64,000 nt of DNA from an uncultured archaeon. Lineage in GTDB: Archaea > Thermoplasmatota > Penumbrarchaeia > JASLWR01. The DNA is taken from assembly GCA_964342815.1 (NCBI GenBank), contig CAYFHS010000002.1:278282-342281 (forward strand), read 5' to 3'. The translations under genes and the position numbers were made by a program. Numbering within the stretch: the stretch's first letter is position 1; the number at the start of each line of letters is the position of its first letter. The notes beneath the pieces were generated by a model. It was not told where the DNA came from and ran no database searches. It saw only the letters and a list, made by a program, of their open reading frames with translations. Of this stretch, positions 49,257 to 61,772 are shown one piece after another.

Positions 49257-52200
49257 TCATCTCTTATCCATATCTTCTTCAGGTTCCTTGCCTCTTTTCC
49301 TGAACACCAGGAATATCACAACGAACACCAGAGCAGCAAGCACAACCACGGCAATATAGACAATCATCGTATCGCTCAGCCCCGACTCCGGCTGTATATC
49401 TGTCTCGGCGGAAAATATGGTGAGCTTCAATCCCTCGTCGCTGCCCAGCTCGTCCTCTCCGCCCATGTAGTTTGCCGCACCTTCCTGGTCATCGTAGAGC
49501 TTGTCGGATGCAGGAACCTCGCCGTCCACCCTTTCGTCGAAGTCCTCGGAAAGGCCTTTTTCCCATACGTTACCGGACTTGATCTTCATTTGCTTCGTAA
49601 ACGTCCGGGTTCCGTCCTCGAGCTTCATCTCTTTGGGAAGGGTTATGATGCACTCCACGTCCATGGAGAACGGTCCCTTGATATTGAGGTCGAAATCCGA
49701 GTTCTTTTCGAGGTTCACGTCTCCCACTGCTTCCATGTTGAAGGTTATTTCCATATCGAGGGCGGCCGGTGTTATTTCTCCCTCCAGCTTCGAACCCATC
49801 TCGTAGGACAGCGATTCATCGTCAATTACGAAGGGGACGCCTCCCAGTGAAAGCACAGGTCGTATGATGGGATTTTCCGTGATCGAGGTGTGTTTTTCGA
49901 TTAGAAGCCTCTCTGAGGCCGATATAACCATGTCACCGTTTCCAAGTTCGTTCTCGATACTCGCCTTCATCATCAATGCGGGGCCGCCGAGATGCACATT
50001 GGTGGCGACCTTCACCGAACCAGTGCTTTCGAAATTCATTTTTAACTTTCCGCTGTTCGCCTCTCCCTTCTCCAATTTCAGGGAAATGCCCTTCGGACCG
50101 GCATCGCTTATCTCGAAGGACGATACCTCCGATACGGCAAAAACCTCGCCGCCGTTCGTCTTGTAGGCGAATGCCTTGTAACTGCCCTGGGGAAGCCTCA
50201 GCCCTATTTCATCGCCCCTGGTGCCTCCATCAGCCTTTTCCTCCCGGTATTCCACATTGTTCCATCCGCCGTATCCACGGTAATCGACGCCTCTCCCGGT
50301 ATCGAAAACTGCGAGTTCGATATATCCGTCACCACCTGTGCTGTCTTCGAATGTGGCCGAAAAGGTCTCTTCATCGGGAATTATGCGCTTCTCAAGCTCG
50401 AAGTCATGGGTTATGGTCCCTGGAGAATCGGCATGGGTGATGAATTTCGCAGGGAAATAATCAACCCAATCTTCCCGGTATTTATCATCTTCTTCTTCCC
50501 TATCTTTGTCATCGGGATCTTTCATATCATTGCTGGTGCTCCCGTCCTCCCGGTAATTCATATAGTAATTTCCCTCTGTTGATAGGATGATATCACCCAA
50601 CGGTACGTATATCTCGTAATGACCAGTCTCATCGGTATATGTATTGTTGTGCAGAACGTATTCATCGGTTATGATGGTGGCATCGAGATGGTAGTAGGTA
50701 AGCGGCGCTTTCGTAGCTGCGTCCCTTACGAATCCCTCTATCCTCACCACATCCTTGGGCTTGGGTTTGAGAAGAATCTCGATCTCCGCCGTTTCCCCGG
50801 ACAGCACCTCCAGTTCGGTGGAGTATGGAAAAAATGGTGTTTCGACCTTGTAGAATCCCCCCATATTCTCATTGTCAGAATCTGCACCGTTCTCTCCGTA
50901 TTTCTCCTTGTATTCCTCGGGATTCAGGTATAAATCCTCTATTACTCTGACGTTCATGTAATAATATCCCGGATACACTTCCATGGAAAATTTGCCGTTC
51001 TCGTCAACGTTCGCGGCGAGATACATGAATATCTCCCCCCCGTAGATGCTTATTTCGGAATTTGTGACTATCTCTCCAGTGTCCCGGTCTTTGACTATAC
51101 CGCTTATCTTCGCATCCTTCTTTGGCATGTTCTTGAAGGTCACGTTATGCCAGATAGTTTCCTTTCCTTCAATGGAAAATTCGAATTTATGTTCCCTGAA
51201 ATTCCCTTCGTCAGGCCATGGTTCAGTATCTCCAGCTTCGCTGGTACCTTCCTCGCCAATTTCGATTTCCTCAACTTCATCACCCCTGTTGGCTTCCTTT
51301 GATCCTCCCCCCTCATCGTTTCCCGGCATGGGTTTTTCATCGTACTCGACCACATCATCTCCGCCGTAGTAATATGGAGGCGACACTGTCATGATGTAGT
51401 CACCAGCCCGCAAGGGTATCTCGTAGTAACCGTCCTTCTCGGTATATCCGAAATATTCATTTCCATATCCCGGATAGTTATTAGGAGGTGTGTCAACCGA
51501 GCCCACGGCTCCACCGCCGCTTGCCATTTCCTTTTCATCATCCCTTGTATCGTCCTTATCATCTTCTACCGGCTTACCTTCCGGAACTTCCCCGTTTGCA
51601 CCGACGAAAGAGGGAAATACGTATATCCAGGCATCCCCAACGCCGTTCCCGTCCTCGTCTCTTGCATACCCTTTTATCATTGCATCCACCGGGGGCAACG
51701 GCTCCAGAGATATGTTGTGCCAGACAGTTTCGTTCTCCACGACAACTATCTTTGTGGAGTACGGAAGATATTCGGCTGCCCCCTTCTCCACCCCCCCGCC
51801 GCTCCCGGATGAATCCTCGGGCCCTTCCCTTTCATCTTCCAGATACGCATCCTTCCAGAAGAGATGGGCATCTACGTAATAGGTGCCCGGGATAAGTTTG
51901 ACGGTGTAATATCCCTTTGGGTCGGTATGGGTGAATTTCATGGGGATGTAATAGTAATTCATATAACCGGATGACGAGCTCCCGCTGTTCTCTGATGAAC
52001 CTTCTTTGTCTTCCCACTCTTCATCATCATCCATGGGGACCTCGGGGGGGCGCTGTTCTTTCGGCAGTAATGGAGATTCGATCAGGTTGAAACTCAGTTC
52101 GACATCTGAAAGTACTTCCCCGGTTTTTTCATCCTTTACAGAACCCTTAACAATGCTACTCTCCGGAGGAAAGGGAGTGATATTAATGGTATAATTCACT

Positions 52201-52604
52201 GCTCCCTTGATCTCCAGCACGAAAAAATTTTCAAAATACTTATCCTTTGCTGCCCAGAACTGGAAGGTGCCAATATCGAGGTGAAAAGTTATGCTCCCGT
52301 TCTCATCGGTGATCCCCTTGACTTCCTGGAATTCCCGCCAATCGCCATCCGCTTTTCCCTCGTTGAACCCGTAAACGGATGCGCCCGGGACCGTCTCACC
52401 GTTCTTGTCATTTAGCACTGTTATGTTGACGGAAAACTCTCCATCTCCCAAGAGACCTTCCTTTTCATCCAGGTAATCATCATTGTCGGGATCTTCACCG
52501 TTAGTATCTTTTTCATCGTCATTGCTCTCGAGAGCCGCAACTGCCGTCATGCACAACAGTAACATGAGTGCCAGCGCAAATATCTTGTTGATGGTCTTTG
52601 CCAT
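49257..52604 (-). CDS. Secreted, C-terminally anchored protein with several carboxypeptidase-regulatory-like domains separated by acidic linkers
   Basis: Repeated (I/V)KG.V.D..TGE....A and TD..G.Y...L..G.Y motifs; C-terminal TM + RKRGK. Confidence 0.8.
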   Translation of the reverse strand: MAKTINKIFALALMLLLCMTAVAALESNDDEKDTNGEDPDNDDYLDEKEGLLGDGEFSVNITVLNDKNGETVPGASVYGFNEGKADGDWREFQEVKGITDENGSITFHLDIGTFQFWAAKDKYFENFFVLEIKGAVNYTINITPFPPESSIVKGSVKDEKTGEVLSDVELSFNLIESPLLPKEQRPPEVPMDDDEEWEDKEGSSENSGSSSSGYMNYYYIPMKFTHTDPKGYYTVKLIPGTYYVDAHLFWKDAYLEDEREGPEDSSGSGGGVEKGAAEYLPYSTKIVVVENETVWHNISLEPLPPVDAMIKGYARDEDGNGVGDAWIYVFPSFVGANGEVPEGKPVEDDKDDTRDDEKEMASGGGAVGSVDTPPNNYPGYGNEYFGYTEKDGYYEIPLRAGDYIMTVSPPYYYGGDDVVEYDEKPMPGNDEGGGSKEANRGDEVEEIEIGEEGTSEAGDTEPWPDEGNFREHKFEFSIEGKETIWHNVTFKNMPKKDAKISGIVKDRDTGEIVTNSEISIYGGEIFMYLAANVDENGKFSMEVYPGYYYMNVRVIEDLYLNPEEYKEKYGENGADSDNENMGGFYKVETPFFPYSTELEVLSGETAEIEILLKPKPKDVVRIEGFVRDAATKAPLTYYHLDATIITDEYVLHNNTYTDETGHYEIYVPLGDIILSTEGNYYMNYREDGSTSNDMKDPDDKDREEEDDKYREDWVDYFPAKFITHADSPGTITHDFELEKRIIPDEETFSATFEDSTGGDGYIELAVFDTGRGVDYRGYGGWNNVEYREEKADGGTRGDEIGLRLPQGSYKAFAYKTNGGEVFAVSEVSSFEISDAGPKGISLKLEKGEANSGKLKMNFESTGSVKVATNVHLGGPALMMKASIENELGNGDMVISASERLLIEKHTSITENPIIRPVLSLGGVPFVIDDESLSYEMGSKLEGEITPAALDMEITFNMEAVGDVNLEKNSDFDLNIKGPFSMDVECIITLPKEMKLEDGTRTFTKQMKIKSGNVWEKGLSEDFDERVDGEVPASDKLYDDQEGAANYMGGEDELGSDEGLKLTIFSAETDIQPESGLSDTMIVYIAVVVLAALVFVVIFLVFRKRGKEPEEDMDKR

Positions 52605-54255: not shown

Positions 54256-55599
54256 TCACCATTCCATGGGGTGAAATCCGAAAAGGGCCATGATCTCCAC
54301 TGACACCGCATTATCGGGTGATCTTTTTTTGATGTTGATGACCTTCTCAACCGCCACAAGATCCATTTCCACTCTTCTTTTGAAAACTGTGAATTCTCGA
54401 TTATCAATTACATTCCGCGTCCTGGTAAACAGCAAAGCTTCTCGTACTGACGGACGCCCCGAGCCCCTGTCCAGTTCTCCCGTTATGGCATCCCAGCACT
54501 CTTCAACGGATTCTCCCTGCCCCATGCTGACGTTCAGCACTCCACCGCCCCTGAAGAAGTTCATGGTCATATCTCCGTGATCATCCAGCAGGTCGCGTAT
54601 TCTCAATATGGCCAGGTTCAATAACTCATCCATCACCTCGAATCCCTTTATGAGTGGAAGATCGGGTTCCAGCGATGTTAGGAGATCATTGGGAACGGTA
54701 AGAACCTTGTCCGAGCATAGCTTCAATTCTTTTAATCCTTTAGCAGTGTTGCTCTTTTTGCCCCCTCCCTCATCCTTGAAAGGCAGGGTCACAATAGGAC
54801 ACACTTTCGCACCGATTTCCTTCGCGGCCCTGACAATTACGGGTCCTGCTCCAGTTCCCGTCCCACCCCCCATTCCGAAGGTAACTATCACAACATCAAA
54901 ACCTTTCAAGCTGGCCTTGAACCGCTCCAGTGAGAATTCAGCGGCTTCGCGGCCAAGTATCACATCCCCCTCTGTCCCATTTCCACCAGTGATATCTTCA
55001 CCAATGTATACTTTGTGTGGAACGCCAACCTGGAATAACTCCTGGAGATTGCTGTCCACCGCAATTATCTTCATCTCTCGGCCCGTTATCTTCTTTCCTT
55101 CCAGTGACCGGTACATCTTCCCCACGATATTACCTCCAGCGCCCCCTACGCCAACCACTGCGATCCTGAAGTTCCTCTTTTTATCGATTCCGTATGAAGG
55201 GGATGATGGCGATAAAAAATCCCTGCCAAATCCTGGTATTTCCTTTTCCTTTTTATTGGTTTTCAGAGCTATGTCACCTACATTTTCGTCAGTATCCTCA
55301 TTCCAATCCTCCAAGGGTTCTGCTCCCACGTCAGATTCTACCAATAACTCGTACATTATACTCTCGTCATCATCTCCGGTGCGTGCATCCTTGGTTTCAA
55401 TCTCTTGGTCATATTTCCCCCCTTCCTCCTGTTCTTTCATAACTTCTTTTACAACTTCACAATGCATTTCATAGGGAACGTCCATGAGCTCCGAAAGACT
55501 GATCAACATCTCCGCCTGAACCTTTTCGAGACTACCCTCGGCCAGGGCCTTGCGAACCATCTCTCCATATATCTTTCGTTTATCTGTATCATCTATCAT
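54256..55599 (-). CDS. Divergent FtsZ/tubulin-family GTPase paralogue with N-terminal helical and acidic extension
   Basis: IAVVGVGGAGGN, GREAAE, GMGGGTGTGAGPV, VTLPFKDEG; T7 loop absent. ATG 55599 with GGTG RBS preferred over the track's 55701. Confidence 0.85.
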   Translation of the reverse strand: MIDDTDKRKIYGEMVRKALAEGSLEKVQAEMLISLSELMDVPYEMHCEVVKEVMKEQEEGGKYDQEIETKDARTGDDDESIMYELLVESDVGAEPLEDWNEDTDENVGDIALKTNKKEKEIPGFGRDFLSPSSPSYGIDKKRNFRIAVVGVGGAGGNIVGKMYRSLEGKKITGREMKIIAVDSNLQELFQVGVPHKVYIGEDITGGNGTEGDVILGREAAEFSLERFKASLKGFDVVIVTFGMGGGTGTGAGPVIVRAAKEIGAKVCPIVTLPFKDEGGGKKSNTAKGLKELKLCSDKVLTVPNDLLTSLEPDLPLIKGFEVMDELLNLAILRIRDLLDDHGDMTMNFFRGGGVLNVSMGQGESVEECWDAITGELDRGSGRPSVREALLFTRTRNVIDNREFTVFKRRVEMDLVAVEKVINIKKRSPDNAVSVEIMALFGFHPMEW

Positions 55600-55788
55600 C
55601 GTGTTACACCAAGCTCGATTGAGTGACCGGAAACGGTTTTTTACTATACTATCGGAGATAGATAAACGTTTTGTTGCCAATCTCACATTGACCTTACCCA
55701 TCCCCGTTCCATTCCATAATTTCTGAAATGTTCATATAAACAAAAGAGAAGGCAAAATATTAATCCCTATTTCCCCACTCCCCCCCCG

Positions 55789-56861: not shown

Positions 56862-59800
56862 TTGAGCCGCATTGGAGTTATGGGGACGGTGATGCTTTTA
56901 CTTGTCAACTTGTTAATCGGTAATCTTCTAATCCCAGTGGAGCTCTCCGAAGAAGAATCGAATACGGCGAATATCAAGAAAGTTCTCAAAACTCCTGATT
57001 GGAGGGAGGACACCAGAGGACCTGCCATGGAATCTGATCCTCAGGGAGGATCCTGGTACGATGATTTCAATGATTTTGGCGGACTTAATCAATCAGAAAA
57101 CGTTACAATTATAAACAGTATTGCGAGATCGAGTCAGCGGGCATACCGTGTACCCGTTACACTGGTGAATAACGGTGAACTTCTTCGTGATTTCCAGGTA
57201 AAGATCAATATTAATGAGAGCTTTTTTGATTATACTAAAGCAGAACCCAATGGGGAGGATATTCGCTTTACTCACGAGAATGGTGTGAAATTGGATCATT
57301 GGATCGAAAAATGGAACGAGGACGGCAATTCTACCGTGTGGGTCAGGATTCCCGACCTCCCGGAGGGCAGCACCACGGTGAGAATGTATTACGGTTGTCC
57401 GGAAGCCGAGGACGGCAGTGATGGTTCAGCGGTCTTCGATTTCTTCGATGACTTTTCATTCTATGACGATGCTAAATGGGTTAGTACCGGAACGTCTTCC
57501 GTAAACAACGGGTATTTAACGGTAAGAACCGGTGCTGTGTATTCCCGAAATACGGCTTCCAACCAACCAGGAAAAATTTGCGAGGCAAAGTTGAAATGGA
57601 ACAATTTTGCACATTTTTCCGGTCTTTGCATGGGAAGTACGCACTCGACCCAGGGAAGTAATGCAGGGTCGGACAAGATTGTCTATCTCATGACGAATAT
57701 GGGCGGAGATCCCAGTATAAGGGCCTGGGCGGGTTCGGGCGATGAGGCCACGTACGATATCATATCCGGTGCAACGCAGTATACTGCAACGCAGGGTGTG
57801 GAGCATACCATGGGTTTCACATTGACCGATACGAATCTATCATTCCAGATGAACTCGGCAACAACGAATAATTATATCGGTACGTGGTCCGGTCCGTTCT
57901 ACATCTGGTTGGGTTTTTTTACTGGTTCCAGAGGGGGCAACACAGATATTTCGGATGTATCTGTAGACCGGGTGATGGTCCGCAAGATCGGAGAGAATCC
58001 TGAAACCATTTTCGGGCAAGAAGAACAAAATCCCTCTTCTTACATGATATCCCAATCAATAAGTCTTCCCGATAGGATGCGCTGGGAGTTTCTCACTCTT
58101 GCCAAAACAGAAACAAATGATTCAAAAATAACCGTCTCTATCTTGAATGCAGCAACGAACAGTACTATTGCGGGATTTGATAATATTACCGGAAACGCTC
58201 TTATTCTATCGAACCTGAGTGAGACTGAAATCCAGTTGAAGGCCGTCTTCAACGGAAGCGGTCCGTCAAGATCGACAATGGGATCCTGGGGCATCGAATG
58301 GGTGGATGAAAGTGCGTGGCGCGACAGTTTTATCGGTGGTGAAAAGATAGATAGGCATAGGGGAGTCTCTGTTGGGAACGGCCGTGTAAAGTTGGATCAT
58401 TGGAGATACCGAAGACCTATCGAGATATCATATGCGGGGGAAAATCTCAACGATTTTCAGCTAATGATCCCATTCAACAATACATATTTTGATCATTCGA
58501 AGGCTAAATCTGCCGGTGAGGATATTCGATTTTACGATGAGGGGGGATATGAATTACCTTACTGGATCGAACATTGGAATCTTGCCGGGTACAGCAAAGT
58601 TTGGATAAATAAACCCAGTATCAGGAACGGAAGCTCCATAATATGGATGTATTACGGGAACCCTGATGCGGAAAGGAAAAGTAATGGTGAGCTTGTATTC
58701 GATTTTTTTGATGATTTCAACGGATATACGTTGAACCTATCGAAATGGAACGTTCCGGACAATACCGGGTGGTCGATTGTTGGGGGCCGTCTGAAGGGTA
58801 CGAACAATAACGGCAGGATACTGAGCAAAGCCAAGTTTAGTAATCCAATCGTCCAGGAAGTAAAGACGAGAATCAGTACGAGACCTCCCAATGGTTTCCA
58901 AGGGGCGGGTTTTTACAGCTCGAACAATAATTGTTTCGGTTATTTATGTCATCCAGGTGGTGACTGGTTGAGAAACGAAGGAAGCTGGGTCTTCCTGGGA
59001 GCCGAGCATGTGGGTTTGAATCAATGGCATGATATGCGGATTACGGCCAAGTCAGCTACGCAGGTAAATATTGACATAAAGAACTTTGAAACGGGGGCTG
59101 ATGTTTATAACCAGGATTTCACCAATGCGGTATGGAATGAGAGAATTGCTCTTGGAAGACGGTCTGACGATTCAGGTCTCGACCAGGCCTATGAAGCCTA
59201 CTGGGAGTATGTCAGAGCAAGAAAATTTGCATCAGTGGAACCGTTGATCAATATTGGTGACGAATATGCAAACCCCGCTCCTTTTATAAGTTCAATTCCA
59301 ATTTCACTACCGGAAAACATGTTGTGGTCGACCCTGTCCCTTAACAAGACGGAGCCCGGCAGCATGCAGATTAATCTATCTGTTATCGATTCAAGCAACA
59401 GGACGATCAAGGGTTTCGAGAATCTGACGAACAGCACCATGGATATCGACCGATTTAATGATTTGAACCTGTCCGAAATCCGTCTCAAAGTTCATTATTT
59501 TGGTACCGGAATAAAATTGCCAATTCTCAACTCCTGGTCTGTGAATTGGTCCGGTATTTTGGCACCGAGACTTTTATTCGAAATACCGGATATGGAAATT
59601 CAGGAAGATACCACTGAAGCCAATATTCTGAACCTTACGACTTATATTTTGGATATATACAAGGATCGAGGTCCTACCGTTTTCGCTTTGGAATATGTTT
59701 CCGATACACAAAACATATCGCTGGCCATAAACGACTCAATTCTTCATCTTCACGATCTTCGAACAAACTGGTTGGGATTTATTGAGGTGGTGGTCAATTG

Positions 59801-61772
59801 TACGAACTATTATGATAGGTCCACTTTATCCAATCATTTCAACATCACCGTGATGAACGTGAACGATCCGCCCGTGGTGGAGCTGCTCTCACCCTTGGAC
59901 CGCTCGGTAATCGCCGAGCGCAGCGTAACTCTGTCATGGAATGCAACCGACATAGATAACGATCTCGCGGATCTCTCCTATGATATTTACTTCAGCGATG
60001 ATCCCTCGGTTCCACTCTATAAATCGGGCGTCAAAGGCTTAAATTACACTATTGATTCTCTCGAGGATGGTAAAAGATATTTTTGGTATGTTATCCCCCA
60101 TGACCGAGAACGTAATGGAACCTGTATAAACCATTCAAATAGTTTCACTGTAAGCACTGCAGCGCTAATTTTACTCCTACCGGAAAATGGGGCGATACTC
60201 AACGCTACGGGAATCGATCTCAAATGGCATTTGATAAATACGAATGAAGCATGGAAGAAATACCATATCTATATGGGCAGTACCTCGAAGGACCTTCTCG
60301 AAACGAACGTAACATACGATGAATATTTCTCAATAAACCTGCCGAATATCAACGATACCTATTTTTGGAAGATCATTGCTGAGATTGGCGATACGAACCG
60401 TTCCATTGAAAGCGAGGTCTGGTCGTTCTCTACGAAAAAGGTATTCGTCCCTGTTCACGATATAAAAATATCATTTACGGAGGACCGTGTAAGTGGATTT
60501 CAAAGCAGCAACATAACCGTGGAGCTCAATATCTCCAATCGCGGTAATGTCAAGGAAGAGATTATTATCGAAATTATCGGTGAATTGGCTGGCAAAGTGG
60601 GGCACGAACCCACCATATTACTTGCCCCTGGCCAACAGATATTTCTGACAATGAAACTAAAAATGGAATATATAAAGCATGCAAAAGTCTACCTTCTTCA
60701 GGCAAGAGCGACGTATTCCGGTGAGAGCACCGAGGCAGAACTGGAGGTAGATATTGCGCTGGAGCAAAGCTCTCTGGATATAAAAAGCTCTTCGGGATGG
60801 GTCTGGATAACTATAGCAATATTATTTATTCTGGTCATTGTTGTGATTTTACTACTTATTATCAGACGTTCTGGAAAAAAGAAAAAAGAACGACTCGATC
60901 CGGATATAGATATCCCTGAAACGGAAAAGATCGATAAAGCGAAGGAAACAAACGTTAAAGCAGCTGGCTTCGCCGCCGTTGAATCCCAATCTTCTTACAC
61001 TCCCTACAGTGAAATTTCCAATATGGAAGCCTTCACAGTGAAAACGCATGATGATTTCGGCTTCCAAGGTGGAATAACCCCTCCTGCACCAGCTGAAACC
61101 CGGCGCTATGATTACCGGAAAACCCGAACCGGATCCAAAAAGGGAACTGTGGACGATGGACCTCGAGTTACAGATGGTGATGAAGAGAAAACCATCGTAC
61201 CGGAAATTGAGGTGCTGCCGCCCAAGCCCATGGAAAAGCTGGAGTCCTTCCTGAAAAGTTCCCGAATTGAACGGAAACAATCCCTTCCTACGGCGGAAAT
61301 AGATGTTCCGACATTGCTCGAGCCTCCATCAACCGAGGATGCAGGTCATCCCACCCCTGCTCTTCCCGAATTCTCGTCTGATTCGTATCCCGAACCACTG
61401 CCTTCTTCTTATGAGGACCCCCCGTTTTCTACCTATGAACCCCCTTCGCTTTCTTCTTCTGAGGATTCCCCGTCTCCTACCTATGAACCCCCTTCGCCTT
61501 CTTCTTATGAAGATCCCCAATCTTCTACCTATGAACCCCCTTCACCTTCTTCTTCTGAAGATCCCTCGTCTCCTACCTATGAACCCCCTTCACCTTCCTC
61601 GTTTGAAGAGCCCCCTCCAACGGAACTTGATGATTTCACTGGTATTGATGGAACCGACACCATGGATGATGAGGTCTCGCCCCTATCGTCAGGGGATAAT
61701 GTTCTGGATGCATTTTCCAAATATTTGGAAAAAATGCCGGACTATCTTCCCCCATCCGATGATAAAAAATAA
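56862..61772 (+). CDS. Very large single-pass surface protein: two DUF2341-like domains, cadherin/FN3/CARDB-like domains, TM, long Pro/Ser-rich cytoplasmic tail
   Basis: Two copies of GEDIRF...L.(H/Y)WIE.WN...VW...P...MYYG.P..G..VF.FFDDF; NVNDPP; TM + RRSGKKKK. Confidence 0.82.
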   Translation: MSRIGVMGTVMLLLVNLLIGNLLIPVELSEEESNTANIKKVLKTPDWREDTRGPAMESDPQGGSWYDDFNDFGGLNQSENVTIINSIARSSQRAYRVPVTLVNNGELLRDFQVKININESFFDYTKAEPNGEDIRFTHENGVKLDHWIEKWNEDGNSTVWVRIPDLPEGSTTVRMYYGCPEAEDGSDGSAVFDFFDDFSFYDDAKWVSTGTSSVNNGYLTVRTGAVYSRNTASNQPGKICEAKLKWNNFAHFSGLCMGSTHSTQGSNAGSDKIVYLMTNMGGDPSIRAWAGSGDEATYDIISGATQYTATQGVEHTMGFTLTDTNLSFQMNSATTNNYIGTWSGPFYIWLGFFTGSRGGNTDISDVSVDRVMVRKIGENPETIFGQEEQNPSSYMISQSISLPDRMRWEFLTLAKTETNDSKITVSILNAATNSTIAGFDNITGNALILSNLSETEIQLKAVFNGSGPSRSTMGSWGIEWVDESAWRDSFIGGEKIDRHRGVSVGNGRVKLDHWRYRRPIEISYAGENLNDFQLMIPFNNTYFDHSKAKSAGEDIRFYDEGGYELPYWIEHWNLAGYSKVWINKPSIRNGSSIIWMYYGNPDAERKSNGELVFDFFDDFNGYTLNLSKWNVPDNTGWSIVGGRLKGTNNNGRILSKAKFSNPIVQEVKTRISTRPPNGFQGAGFYSSNNNCFGYLCHPGGDWLRNEGSWVFLGAEHVGLNQWHDMRITAKSATQVNIDIKNFETGADVYNQDFTNAVWNERIALGRRSDDSGLDQAYEAYWEYVRARKFASVEPLINIGDEYANPAPFISSIPISLPENMLWSTLSLNKTEPGSMQINLSVIDSSNRTIKGFENLTNSTMDIDRFNDLNLSEIRLKVHYFGTGIKLPILNSWSVNWSGILAPRLLFEIPDMEIQEDTTEANILNLTTYILDIYKDRGPTVFALEYVSDTQNISLAINDSILHLHDLRTNWLGFIEVVVNCTNYYDRSTLSNHFNITVMNVNDPPVVELLSPLDRSVIAERSVTLSWNATDIDNDLADLSYDIYFSDDPSVPLYKSGVKGLNYTIDSLEDGKRYFWYVIPHDRERNGTCINHSNSFTVSTAALILLLPENGAILNATGIDLKWHLINTNEAWKKYHIYMGSTSKDLLETNVTYDEYFSINLPNINDTYFWKIIAEIGDTNRSIESEVWSFSTKKVFVPVHDIKISFTEDRVSGFQSSNITVELNISNRGNVKEEIIIEIIGELAGKVGHEPTILLAPGQQIFLTMKLKMEYIKHAKVYLLQARATYSGESTEAELEVDIALEQSSLDIKSSSGWVWITIAILFILVIVVILLLIIRRSGKKKKERLDPDIDIPETEKIDKAKETNVKAAGFAAVESQSSYTPYSEISNMEAFTVKTHDDFGFQGGITPPAPAETRRYDYRKTRTGSKKGTVDDGPRVTDGDEEKTIVPEIEVLPPKPMEKLESFLKSSRIERKQSLPTAEIDVPTLLEPPSTEDAGHPTPALPEFSSDSYPEPLPSSYEDPPFSTYEPPSLSSSEDSPSPTYEPPSPSSYEDPQSSTYEPPSPSSSEDPSSPTYEPPSPSSFEEPPPTELDDFTGIDGTDTMDDEVSPLSSGDNVLDAFSKYLEKMPDYLPPSDDKK
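61401..61615 (+). repeat. 48-bp (16-aa) intragenic tandem repeat, about 4.4 copies
   Basis: ACCTATGAACCCCCTTC at 61431, 61479, 61527 and 61575. Confidence 0.9.

Follow-up and report, generated by a model that had tools for sequence, protein, structure and literature searches.

The two ends of an FtsZ filament behave differently, with growth at one and shrinkage at the other. To our knowledge, end-specific control of FtsZ is known from laboratory point mutants and from small inhibitor proteins. The structural basis is well described: each active site is completed by the T7 loop of the adjoining subunit, and T7 mutants are reported to bind GTP but to be defective in assembly or GTPase activity (PMC3684127, section 2.5). 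Subunits add at the bottom end of the filament, and blockers of the bottom face such as MciZ act as substoichiometric cappers (bioRxiv 10.1101/2020.02.25.965095). Here we describe an FtsZ paralog, referred to as family A, encoded in a window of 64,000 nucleotides (positions 278,282 to 342,281 of contig CAYFHS010000002.1, assembly GCA_964342815.1) from the metagenome-assembled genome of an uncultured marine Thermoplasmatota archaeon (4.35 Mb, 89% completeness). The coding sequence lies at 54256-55599 on the minus strand, as are all features given below for this gene, and encodes 447 residues followed by a stop codon at 54256-54258; its start is confirmed by homolog alignment, it matches PF00091, and residue positions are in the 447-residue numbering.

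Judged from its sequence, family A is a lineage-restricted, fast-evolving FtsZ paralog that has kept the GTP pocket and lost T7, and it may act as a bottom-end capper or stabilizer of canonical FtsZ filaments, a reading in which we place a little less than even confidence. Literature searches found no published description of the family or of its architecture.

The nucleotide pocket and the T7/H8 element

The family A consensus was compared column by column with a consensus of 38 FtsZ sequences. The main point of interest is the T7/H8 element HGDMTMNFFRGGG (residues 341-353, 54541-54579), which is degenerate and shortened, with T, N, and R as the equivalents of N207, D209, and D212 in E. coli FtsZ numbering. 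It reads GDMTMNFFRGGG where the FtsZ consensus has GLINVDFADV..., with residues 341-350, HGDMTMNFFR, standing at the position of FtsZ GLINVDFAD. Both HMMER and MAFFT place a 6-residue deletion in H8, and the AlphaFold2 model has just one short helix (342-348) between H7 and S7. Of 261 other FtsZ matches, 248 carry the motif NxD[hydrophobic]xD, which none of the 8 family A members has, so that the T7 loss that a first-pass annotation had read from this single protein is borne out across the whole family, with the caveat of an acidic residue, D343, present in 7 of the 8 members. What replaces the motif is itself strongly conserved, with the consensus [DE]-x-[TS]-x-x-F-F-x-GGG.

On the other side of the subunit, the loops that bind the nucleotide are largely kept. 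The T1 loop GVGGAGGN (residues 150-157, 55129-55152), the T4 tubulin signature GMGGGTGTG (residues 242-250, 54850-54876), and the T5 loop PFKDEG (residues 273-278, 54766-54783, matching PFxxEG) are intact, and T6 (PND) and the H7 base contacts F320 and D324 are retained. Two loops differ in the consensus comparison: T2 reads DSN in place of NTD (residues 182-184, 55048-55056), replacing the cis-acting Asp, and T3 reads GNGTE in place of GLGAG (residues 206-210, 54970-54984). The motifs quoted in the first-pass annotation (GVGGAGGN, GGGTGTG, PFxxEG, DSN, and GNGTE) are all present.

From these features, we propose how the protein may act. The intact top face (T1, T4, T5, T6, and H7) would still bind guanine nucleotide, and the bottom face, lacking the T7 catalytic residues and most of H8, would be unable to activate GTP hydrolysis in the subunit below; T2 and T3, the loops handling the gamma-phosphate and Mg, would contribute a further alteration. 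In a filament of canonical FtsZ, the T7 face is exposed at the bottom end, where growth occurs; the nucleotide face of family A may dock there, and the new end made in this way would be unable to build a catalytic interface, blocking or slowing elongation or turnover there. The N-terminal three-helix domain and acidic linker, described below, could stand in for the missing tail as a handle for partners or for self-association. A capper or stabilizer is what one would expect because the nucleotide face appears usable, the T7 face is disabled, and it is the bottom (T7) end of a filament that takes up new FtsZ subunits. Two canonical FtsZ proteins encoded in the same genome are available as partners, which is a point in favor.

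Several observations weigh against a capping role. The strong conservation of the bottom face would be just as well explained if that face still binds a subunit, whether in a homopolymer or through a stable, GTP-locked interface. With T2 and T3 changed, the pocket might hold GTP less tightly or prefer GDP. D343 lies two positions before the lost Asn, and with its conservation in 7 of 8 members it could in principle act as a displaced catalytic residue. No linkage to ftsZ, sepF, or other division genes is seen around the family A gene. In addition, the organism is represented by an uncultured metagenome-assembled genome, and it is the loss of motifs that makes a capper or regulator a reasonable proposal.

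The first of these observations leads to the possibility, which we hold to be on the unlikely side, that family A builds its own stable, slowly hydrolyzing or nonhydrolyzing homopolymer for shape or positioning, a cytoskeletal filament apart from FtsZ as that of CetZ is, with the N-terminal domain anchoring or bundling it. Both longitudinal faces are strongly conserved, the top one through a LTSLEPDLPLIKGF segment and the bottom one through T-x-NFF-x-GGG, the gene stands apart from division genes, and the protein has a conserved N-terminal module and motifs of its own. However, the H8 deletion and the loss of the T7 residues remove much of the canonical longitudinal interface, and the family is limited to one small lineage. 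If D343 were instead catalytic, family A could be an active, dynamic FtsZ-like GTPase with a rebuilt T7 (D or E at 343), and thus a third functional division FtsZ. That fits the acidic residue beside the T7 position and the intact pocket, but both catalytic Asp equivalents are unconserved, varying as N/F/P/D and R/S/N/T across the family, and the 6-residue shortening of H8, the lost T2 Asp, and a score of 180 bits against a 295-bit equivalog cut-off make this improbable in our estimation.

Family assignment and domain architecture

The protein matches the Pfam family Tubulin (PF00091) at 123.9 bits (E = 1.3e-35), well over the gathering threshold of 33, and the Pfam scan finds no match to FtsZ_C (PF12327). 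Against the ftsZ equivalog model TIGR00065, it scores 179.8 bits, short of the cut-off of 295.2, with coverage confined to model positions 12-216 of 353. Tubulin_2 (PF13809) is also below its gathering threshold of 27, scoring 15.6 bits (E = 0.0097). Among solved structures, M. jannaschii FtsZ is the best match (E = 3e-37), with CetZ far weaker (E = 1.7e-11 to 8e-6). Hence, family A is inside the tubulin/FtsZ superfamily, fails the tests for FtsZ proper by equivalog score, T7, FtsZ_C at the sequence level, and tail, and is neither CetZ nor Tubulin_2.

The AlphaFold2 model, built from an alignment of 8 family members and 38 FtsZ sequences, has a mean predicted local distance difference test (pLDDT) score of 80 and divides into three parts: a three-helix N-terminal domain, a disordered stretch, and a complete two-domain FtsZ core (residues 141-444, pLDDT about 90). 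Foldseek matches the core to solved FtsZ chains with template modeling (TM) scores of 0.84-0.87 over about 310 columns. The two-domain fold of the superfamily, with a Rossmann-like GTPase domain, helix H7, and a C-terminal beta-alpha domain, is thus present in the model. The GTPase domain through H7 (residues 141-340, 54580-55179) corresponds to the PF00091 match and to the Foldseek matches to FtsZ. In the C-terminal domain (residues 354-447, 54259-54540), the AlphaFold2 model has the beta-alpha-beta-alpha-beta-beta order of the FtsZ fold with pLDDT of about 90. Because this predicted fold matches solved FtsZ chains, we regard the domain as divergent in sequence rather than lost. Only a few residues follow the last strand, and the protein lacks a C-terminal linker and tail peptide. 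The domain had been described at first as short, divergent, and tailless; divergence and absence of a tail are upheld, with the qualification that the FtsZ fold itself is retained in the AlphaFold2 and Foldseek results.

Ahead of the core, the roughly 140 extra residues that had been read as a helical domain plus an acidic linker resolve in just that way. The three-helix domain occupies residues 1-60 (55420-55599, pLDDT 87-91), and the acidic disordered linker residues 61-140 (55180-55419, pLDDT below 50), with 23 D/E against 9 K/R in its 80 residues. Within the linker, two short motifs, EDW (98-100) and FGRDFLSPSSPSYG (125-138), are kept in 5 to 6 of 8 members.

No significant family or fold is found for the N-terminal domain by Pfam, Atlas, or Foldseek. 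There are leads below threshold: Pfam ENT at E = 0.12, Atlas TerB/DjlA-N clusters at 0.86, under the lead level of 0.9, and, for a separate AlphaFold2 model of the domain (pLDDT 87), a weak Foldseek match to the EMSY ENT domain (E = 2.2, probability 0.75). Matches to TerB, DUF533, and Tic110 are confined to similar modules encoded by other genes (E = 0.0004 to 1.1). These weak leads all point toward a helical module of ENT/TerB/DjlA-N type. Helical modules resembling the N-terminal domain are encoded in genes for three unrelated multidomain proteins (L032, 889-3132, minus strand; L033, 952-2718, minus strand; L034, 490-1680, plus strand), with the pattern Y-x-x-x-l-x-x-A-x-x-DG-x-i-x-x-x-E-x-x-mL-x-x-L. 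The other domains of these hosts are DUF835 with HEAT repeats, a seven-transmembrane region with zinc ribbons, and a DnaJ-like N terminus. Weak matches of these modules include ENT as well as TerB, DUF533, and Tic110.

The N-terminal domain bears on another explanation, namely that family A is a nonpolymerizing GTP-binding switch or adaptor, with the FtsZ core as a nucleotide sensor and the ENT/TerB-like domain serving for dimerization or for partners. T2, T3, and T7 are all altered and the binding loops kept, as one might expect of a switch, and two weak leads are in line with it: the recurrence of similar modules in three unrelated multidomain proteins of the same genome, and the identity of the best fold lead, the EMSY ENT domain, as a dimerization module. 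On the other hand, the whole two-domain core, including a C-terminal domain that mainly serves filament contacts, is kept at a ratio of nonsynonymous to synonymous substitution rates (dN/dS) below 0.1, and the similarities of the N-terminal domain are all below significance, so we consider a switch rather unlikely.

The longest open frame at the locus is 54256-55701 on the minus strand, with 481 residues. The longer start at 55701 was rejected, given that the extension is missing in most relatives and is broken by a stop in the same-genus ortholog. In the homolog alignment, the Met at 55599 is the first residue in all relatives; the same-genus ortholog has a stop just 5' of the corresponding Met and an open frame of 448 residues. 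Two elements, read from the sequence and putative, precede the ATG: a TATA-like box (tatagtaaaaaa, 55637-55648), about 45 nucleotides upstream, and a Shine-Dalgarno-like GGTG (55607-55610). We place the start at 55599 because relatives begin there, the ortholog has an upstream stop, and such elements precede the ATG, in agreement with the start and length of 447 residues initially assigned.

Relatives, selection, and phylogenetic placement

Three full-length relatives with 58-79% identity came from a word-based search of 5.8 billion proteins, where the next matches, at E = 1e-37, are already ordinary FtsZ. Four more with 32-45% identity were added when 1.84 billion representatives were scanned exhaustively with HMMER, and a genome in GTDB contributed one with 80% identity. 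Nine relatives (31-80% identity) all have the N-terminal domain, an acidic linker of variable length, an intact pocket, and the T7 loss. The family is rare, amounting to about six clusters at 50% identity among the 1.84 billion representatives. A search with the family profile recovers the gene from three genomes only, which belong to a single taxonomic family, out of 37 in the class and 401 sampled across Thermoplasmatota.

Two sets of observations concern membership. Three metagenomic proteins (P0124, P0126, and P0127) with E = 1e-42 to 1e-56 were rejected as members, being tandem fusions of two complete canonical FtsZ units whose score is doubled. They have 744-840 residues, with the two units joined by a low-complexity linker, and could be natural FtsZ-FtsZ fusions or artifacts of assembly or gene calling. 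The fourth genome of the same taxonomic family (G003, 93% complete) has neither the paralog nor the near-universal AmmeMemoRadiSam radical SAM gene that neighbors it. Its absence there was not taken as gene loss, since the neighbor is missing as well; the whole region is probably unassembled rather than lost from the organism.

Between the window gene and its same-genus ortholog, dN/dS is 0.12 overall, 0.05 in the GTPase domain, 0.08 in the region of T7 and the C-terminal domain, and 0.29 in both the N-terminal domain and the linker. The gene is thus under strong purifying selection in every part. The value of 0.08, together with the strong conservation of F-F-x-GGG, indicates that the altered bottom face has a function rather than being in decay. 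The lost catalytic motif and the very long branch might raise the suspicion of a pseudogene in decay or an artifact of annotation, and decay had been named at the outset as one finding that would undo the proposal. Nine relatives, the most distant with 31% identity, keep an intact frame, and together with these dN/dS values and the conserved replacement motifs this refutes such an origin, leaving it extremely improbable.

Where family A belongs in the superfamily was examined by a posterior mean site frequency (PMSF) tree of 53 sequences, with weak-match paralogs, assumed to be CetZ-like, as the outgroup. Family A is monophyletic with support of 100 and lies outside all bacterial and archaeal FtsZ with support of 85, on a stem of 2.9 substitutions per site, and its join to the tree is flagged by the tree tool as a meeting of long branches (long-branch attraction). 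The assumed CetZ-like rows fall outside the group of FtsZ and family A with 100% support. The approximately unbiased (AU) test does not reject placing family A with Thermoplasmatota FtsZ (difference in log-likelihood 0.03, p = 0.48) or with the canonical FtsZ of its own taxonomic family (difference 7.6, p = 0.23). Measured between the same two genomes, tree paths are 3-5 times as long in family A as in the canonical FtsZ copies. Because of this 3-5 times faster evolution and the one-family distribution, a lineage-specific, accelerated duplicate of FtsZ is at least as likely as an ancient deep branch. The suggestion of a new branch distinct from FtsZ1, FtsZ2, and CetZ therefore holds to the extent that family A is a distinct clade with 100% support and is much nearer to FtsZ than it is to CetZ; the place outside all FtsZ depends on the long stem, and the AU tests do not reject an origin within Thermoplasmatota FtsZ. 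On the reading as a duplicate, the case shows how, in a tree, very fast evolution can give a copy the look of a new and deep lineage within the tubulin superfamily.

In the same tree, a single archaeal clade holds both canonical FtsZ copies of the class. Some other Thermoplasmatota have a second type of archaeal FtsZ (L049, L050, L056, and P0034), which was not found in the genome of the window.

Other FtsZ genes, the neighborhood, and known systems

The number of canonical ftsZ genes in the genome, a question that the first-pass annotation had raised, is two: one on contig C10 and one on C38, with TIGR00065 scores of 406 and 396 bits that exceed the cut-off. Both carry T7, a C-terminal linker, and the conserved tail LGLDFI[RK]. 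A genome search with PF00091 gives no further match besides these and family A, and so no CetZ-like gene.

There is a fourth gene of the superfamily, on contig C30 (L006, 694-1815, plus strand, 373 residues), whose defect is the reverse of that in family A and which we call family B. It has an intact T7 (VNIDLAD) and FtsZ_C (PF12327, E = 1.7e-24), and scores 80 bits against TIGR00065. Its GTP loops are destroyed, T1 having become GVGEKG and T4 SDLMDESLD, and it also contains a large charged insert and ends in a C-terminal tail, LLHxY, of its own. Downstream of it is a gene for a 415-residue membrane protein with an acidic tail. Proteins of the family B type occur across the class, and so do not depend on family A.

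The mirrored defects raise the idea that families A and B split the two polymerization faces of FtsZ between them, either as end-specific cappers of the bottom and top of canonical FtsZ filaments, or by pairing into a closed heterodimer in which A and B together form one composite GTPase site. We regard this as an unlikely, if attractive, arrangement. A complex prediction of the family A core (residues 141-447) with family B, GTP, and Mg scored 0.13 against a mark of 0.32, and is not used as evidence either way.

The immediate neighbors of the family A gene are housekeeping genes: TYW1, which is divergent, and an AmmeMemoRadiSam radical SAM enzyme (359 bits), whose gene is 31 bp downstream here and convergent in another genus. 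A functional tie to the latter was considered and rejected, as 35 of the 37 genomes of the class have that gene, with or without family A, and its relative orientation varies between genera. The locus is flanked by genes for two giant predicted surface proteins, one at 49257-52604 on the minus strand (1115 residues, with CarboxypepD_reg and Big_1-like domains) and the other at 56862-61772 on the plus strand (1636 residues, with two DUF2341 domains), an arrangement conserved in the same-genus genome (L007). Elsewhere, contig C20 has at 62789-68053 two very long frames (2756 and 1640 residues when read through), each with a single in-frame stop, TAG and TGA, respectively. These could be adjacent genes, a broken giant gene, or a case of recoding.

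The closest described protein is canonical archaeal FtsZ, represented by M. jannaschii FtsZ1 (PDB ID: 1fsz and 1w5a) and the TIGR00065 family. Family A shares with it the two-domain fold (TM score 0.78-0.87), the contacts of T1, T4, T5, T6, and H7, and 35-41% identity in the GTPase domain. It departs from it in having no T7 N/D/D, an H8 shorter by 6 residues, changed T2 and T3, no tail, and 140 extra N-terminal residues. CetZ (PDB ID: 4b45, 4b46, and 3zid) is likewise an archaeal paralog in the tubulin superfamily, with a role outside division, but is much more distant from family A than FtsZ is (E = 1.7e-11 to 8e-6 versus 3e-37). Nearer at hand is family B, of the same superfamily and genome, which is also a derivative with one face, also below the FtsZ cut-off; in contrast to family A, it has kept T7 and FtsZ_C, has lost T1 and T4, and is found class-wide rather than in one taxonomic family.

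A division of labor between faces has a known parallel in alpha/beta-tubulin, where the T7 residue of one paralog is noncatalytic and the nucleotide facing it is never hydrolyzed, so that the faces are specialized between paralogs. Those proteins are obligate heterodimers that keep the length of the T7 loop, whereas family A has a shortened T7/H8 element. Plant ARC3 is a further example of a regulatory, degenerate FtsZ paralog. There are other precedents for degenerate or FtsZ-like duplicates: the truncated FtsZ1 and FtsZ3 of Hyphomicrobiales, which have lost parts of the machinery (PMC13732431), an FtsZ-like protein without T7 in N. maritimus (PMC3684127), and FtsZl1/Tubulin_2 (PMC9871819). 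Together with ARC3, these are duplicates that tune or inhibit division, or serve otherwise, and none has the family A architecture of an N-terminal three-helix domain, an acidic linker, and a full core with T7 and H8 deleted.

In its faces, family A most resembles the engineered FtsZ mutants of T7 and the bottom face, and the bottom cappers (MciZ-FtsZ, SulA), in which the nucleotide face is usable and the T7 face disabled. A disabled T7 or bottom face leads to a capped growing end or to assembly poisoned at substoichiometric levels (10.1101/2020.02.25.965095; PMC3684127), and by analogy family A would work most like an FtsZ bottom-face mutant. Those examples are laboratory point mutants or small inhibitors, and family A is a conserved natural paralog with an extra domain, so that equivalence of function is inferred across this difference. 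If the proposed capping role is true, cells can control filament ends with dedicated subunits derived from FtsZ, and these would be ready-made reagents for the study of kinetic polarity. If families A and B do split the two faces, the organism would have built-in, polarity-specific control of its FtsZ cytoskeleton. In any case, a defect of the T7 face is here fixed in a natural paralog under selection, alongside a mirror-image paralog and two normal FtsZ genes.

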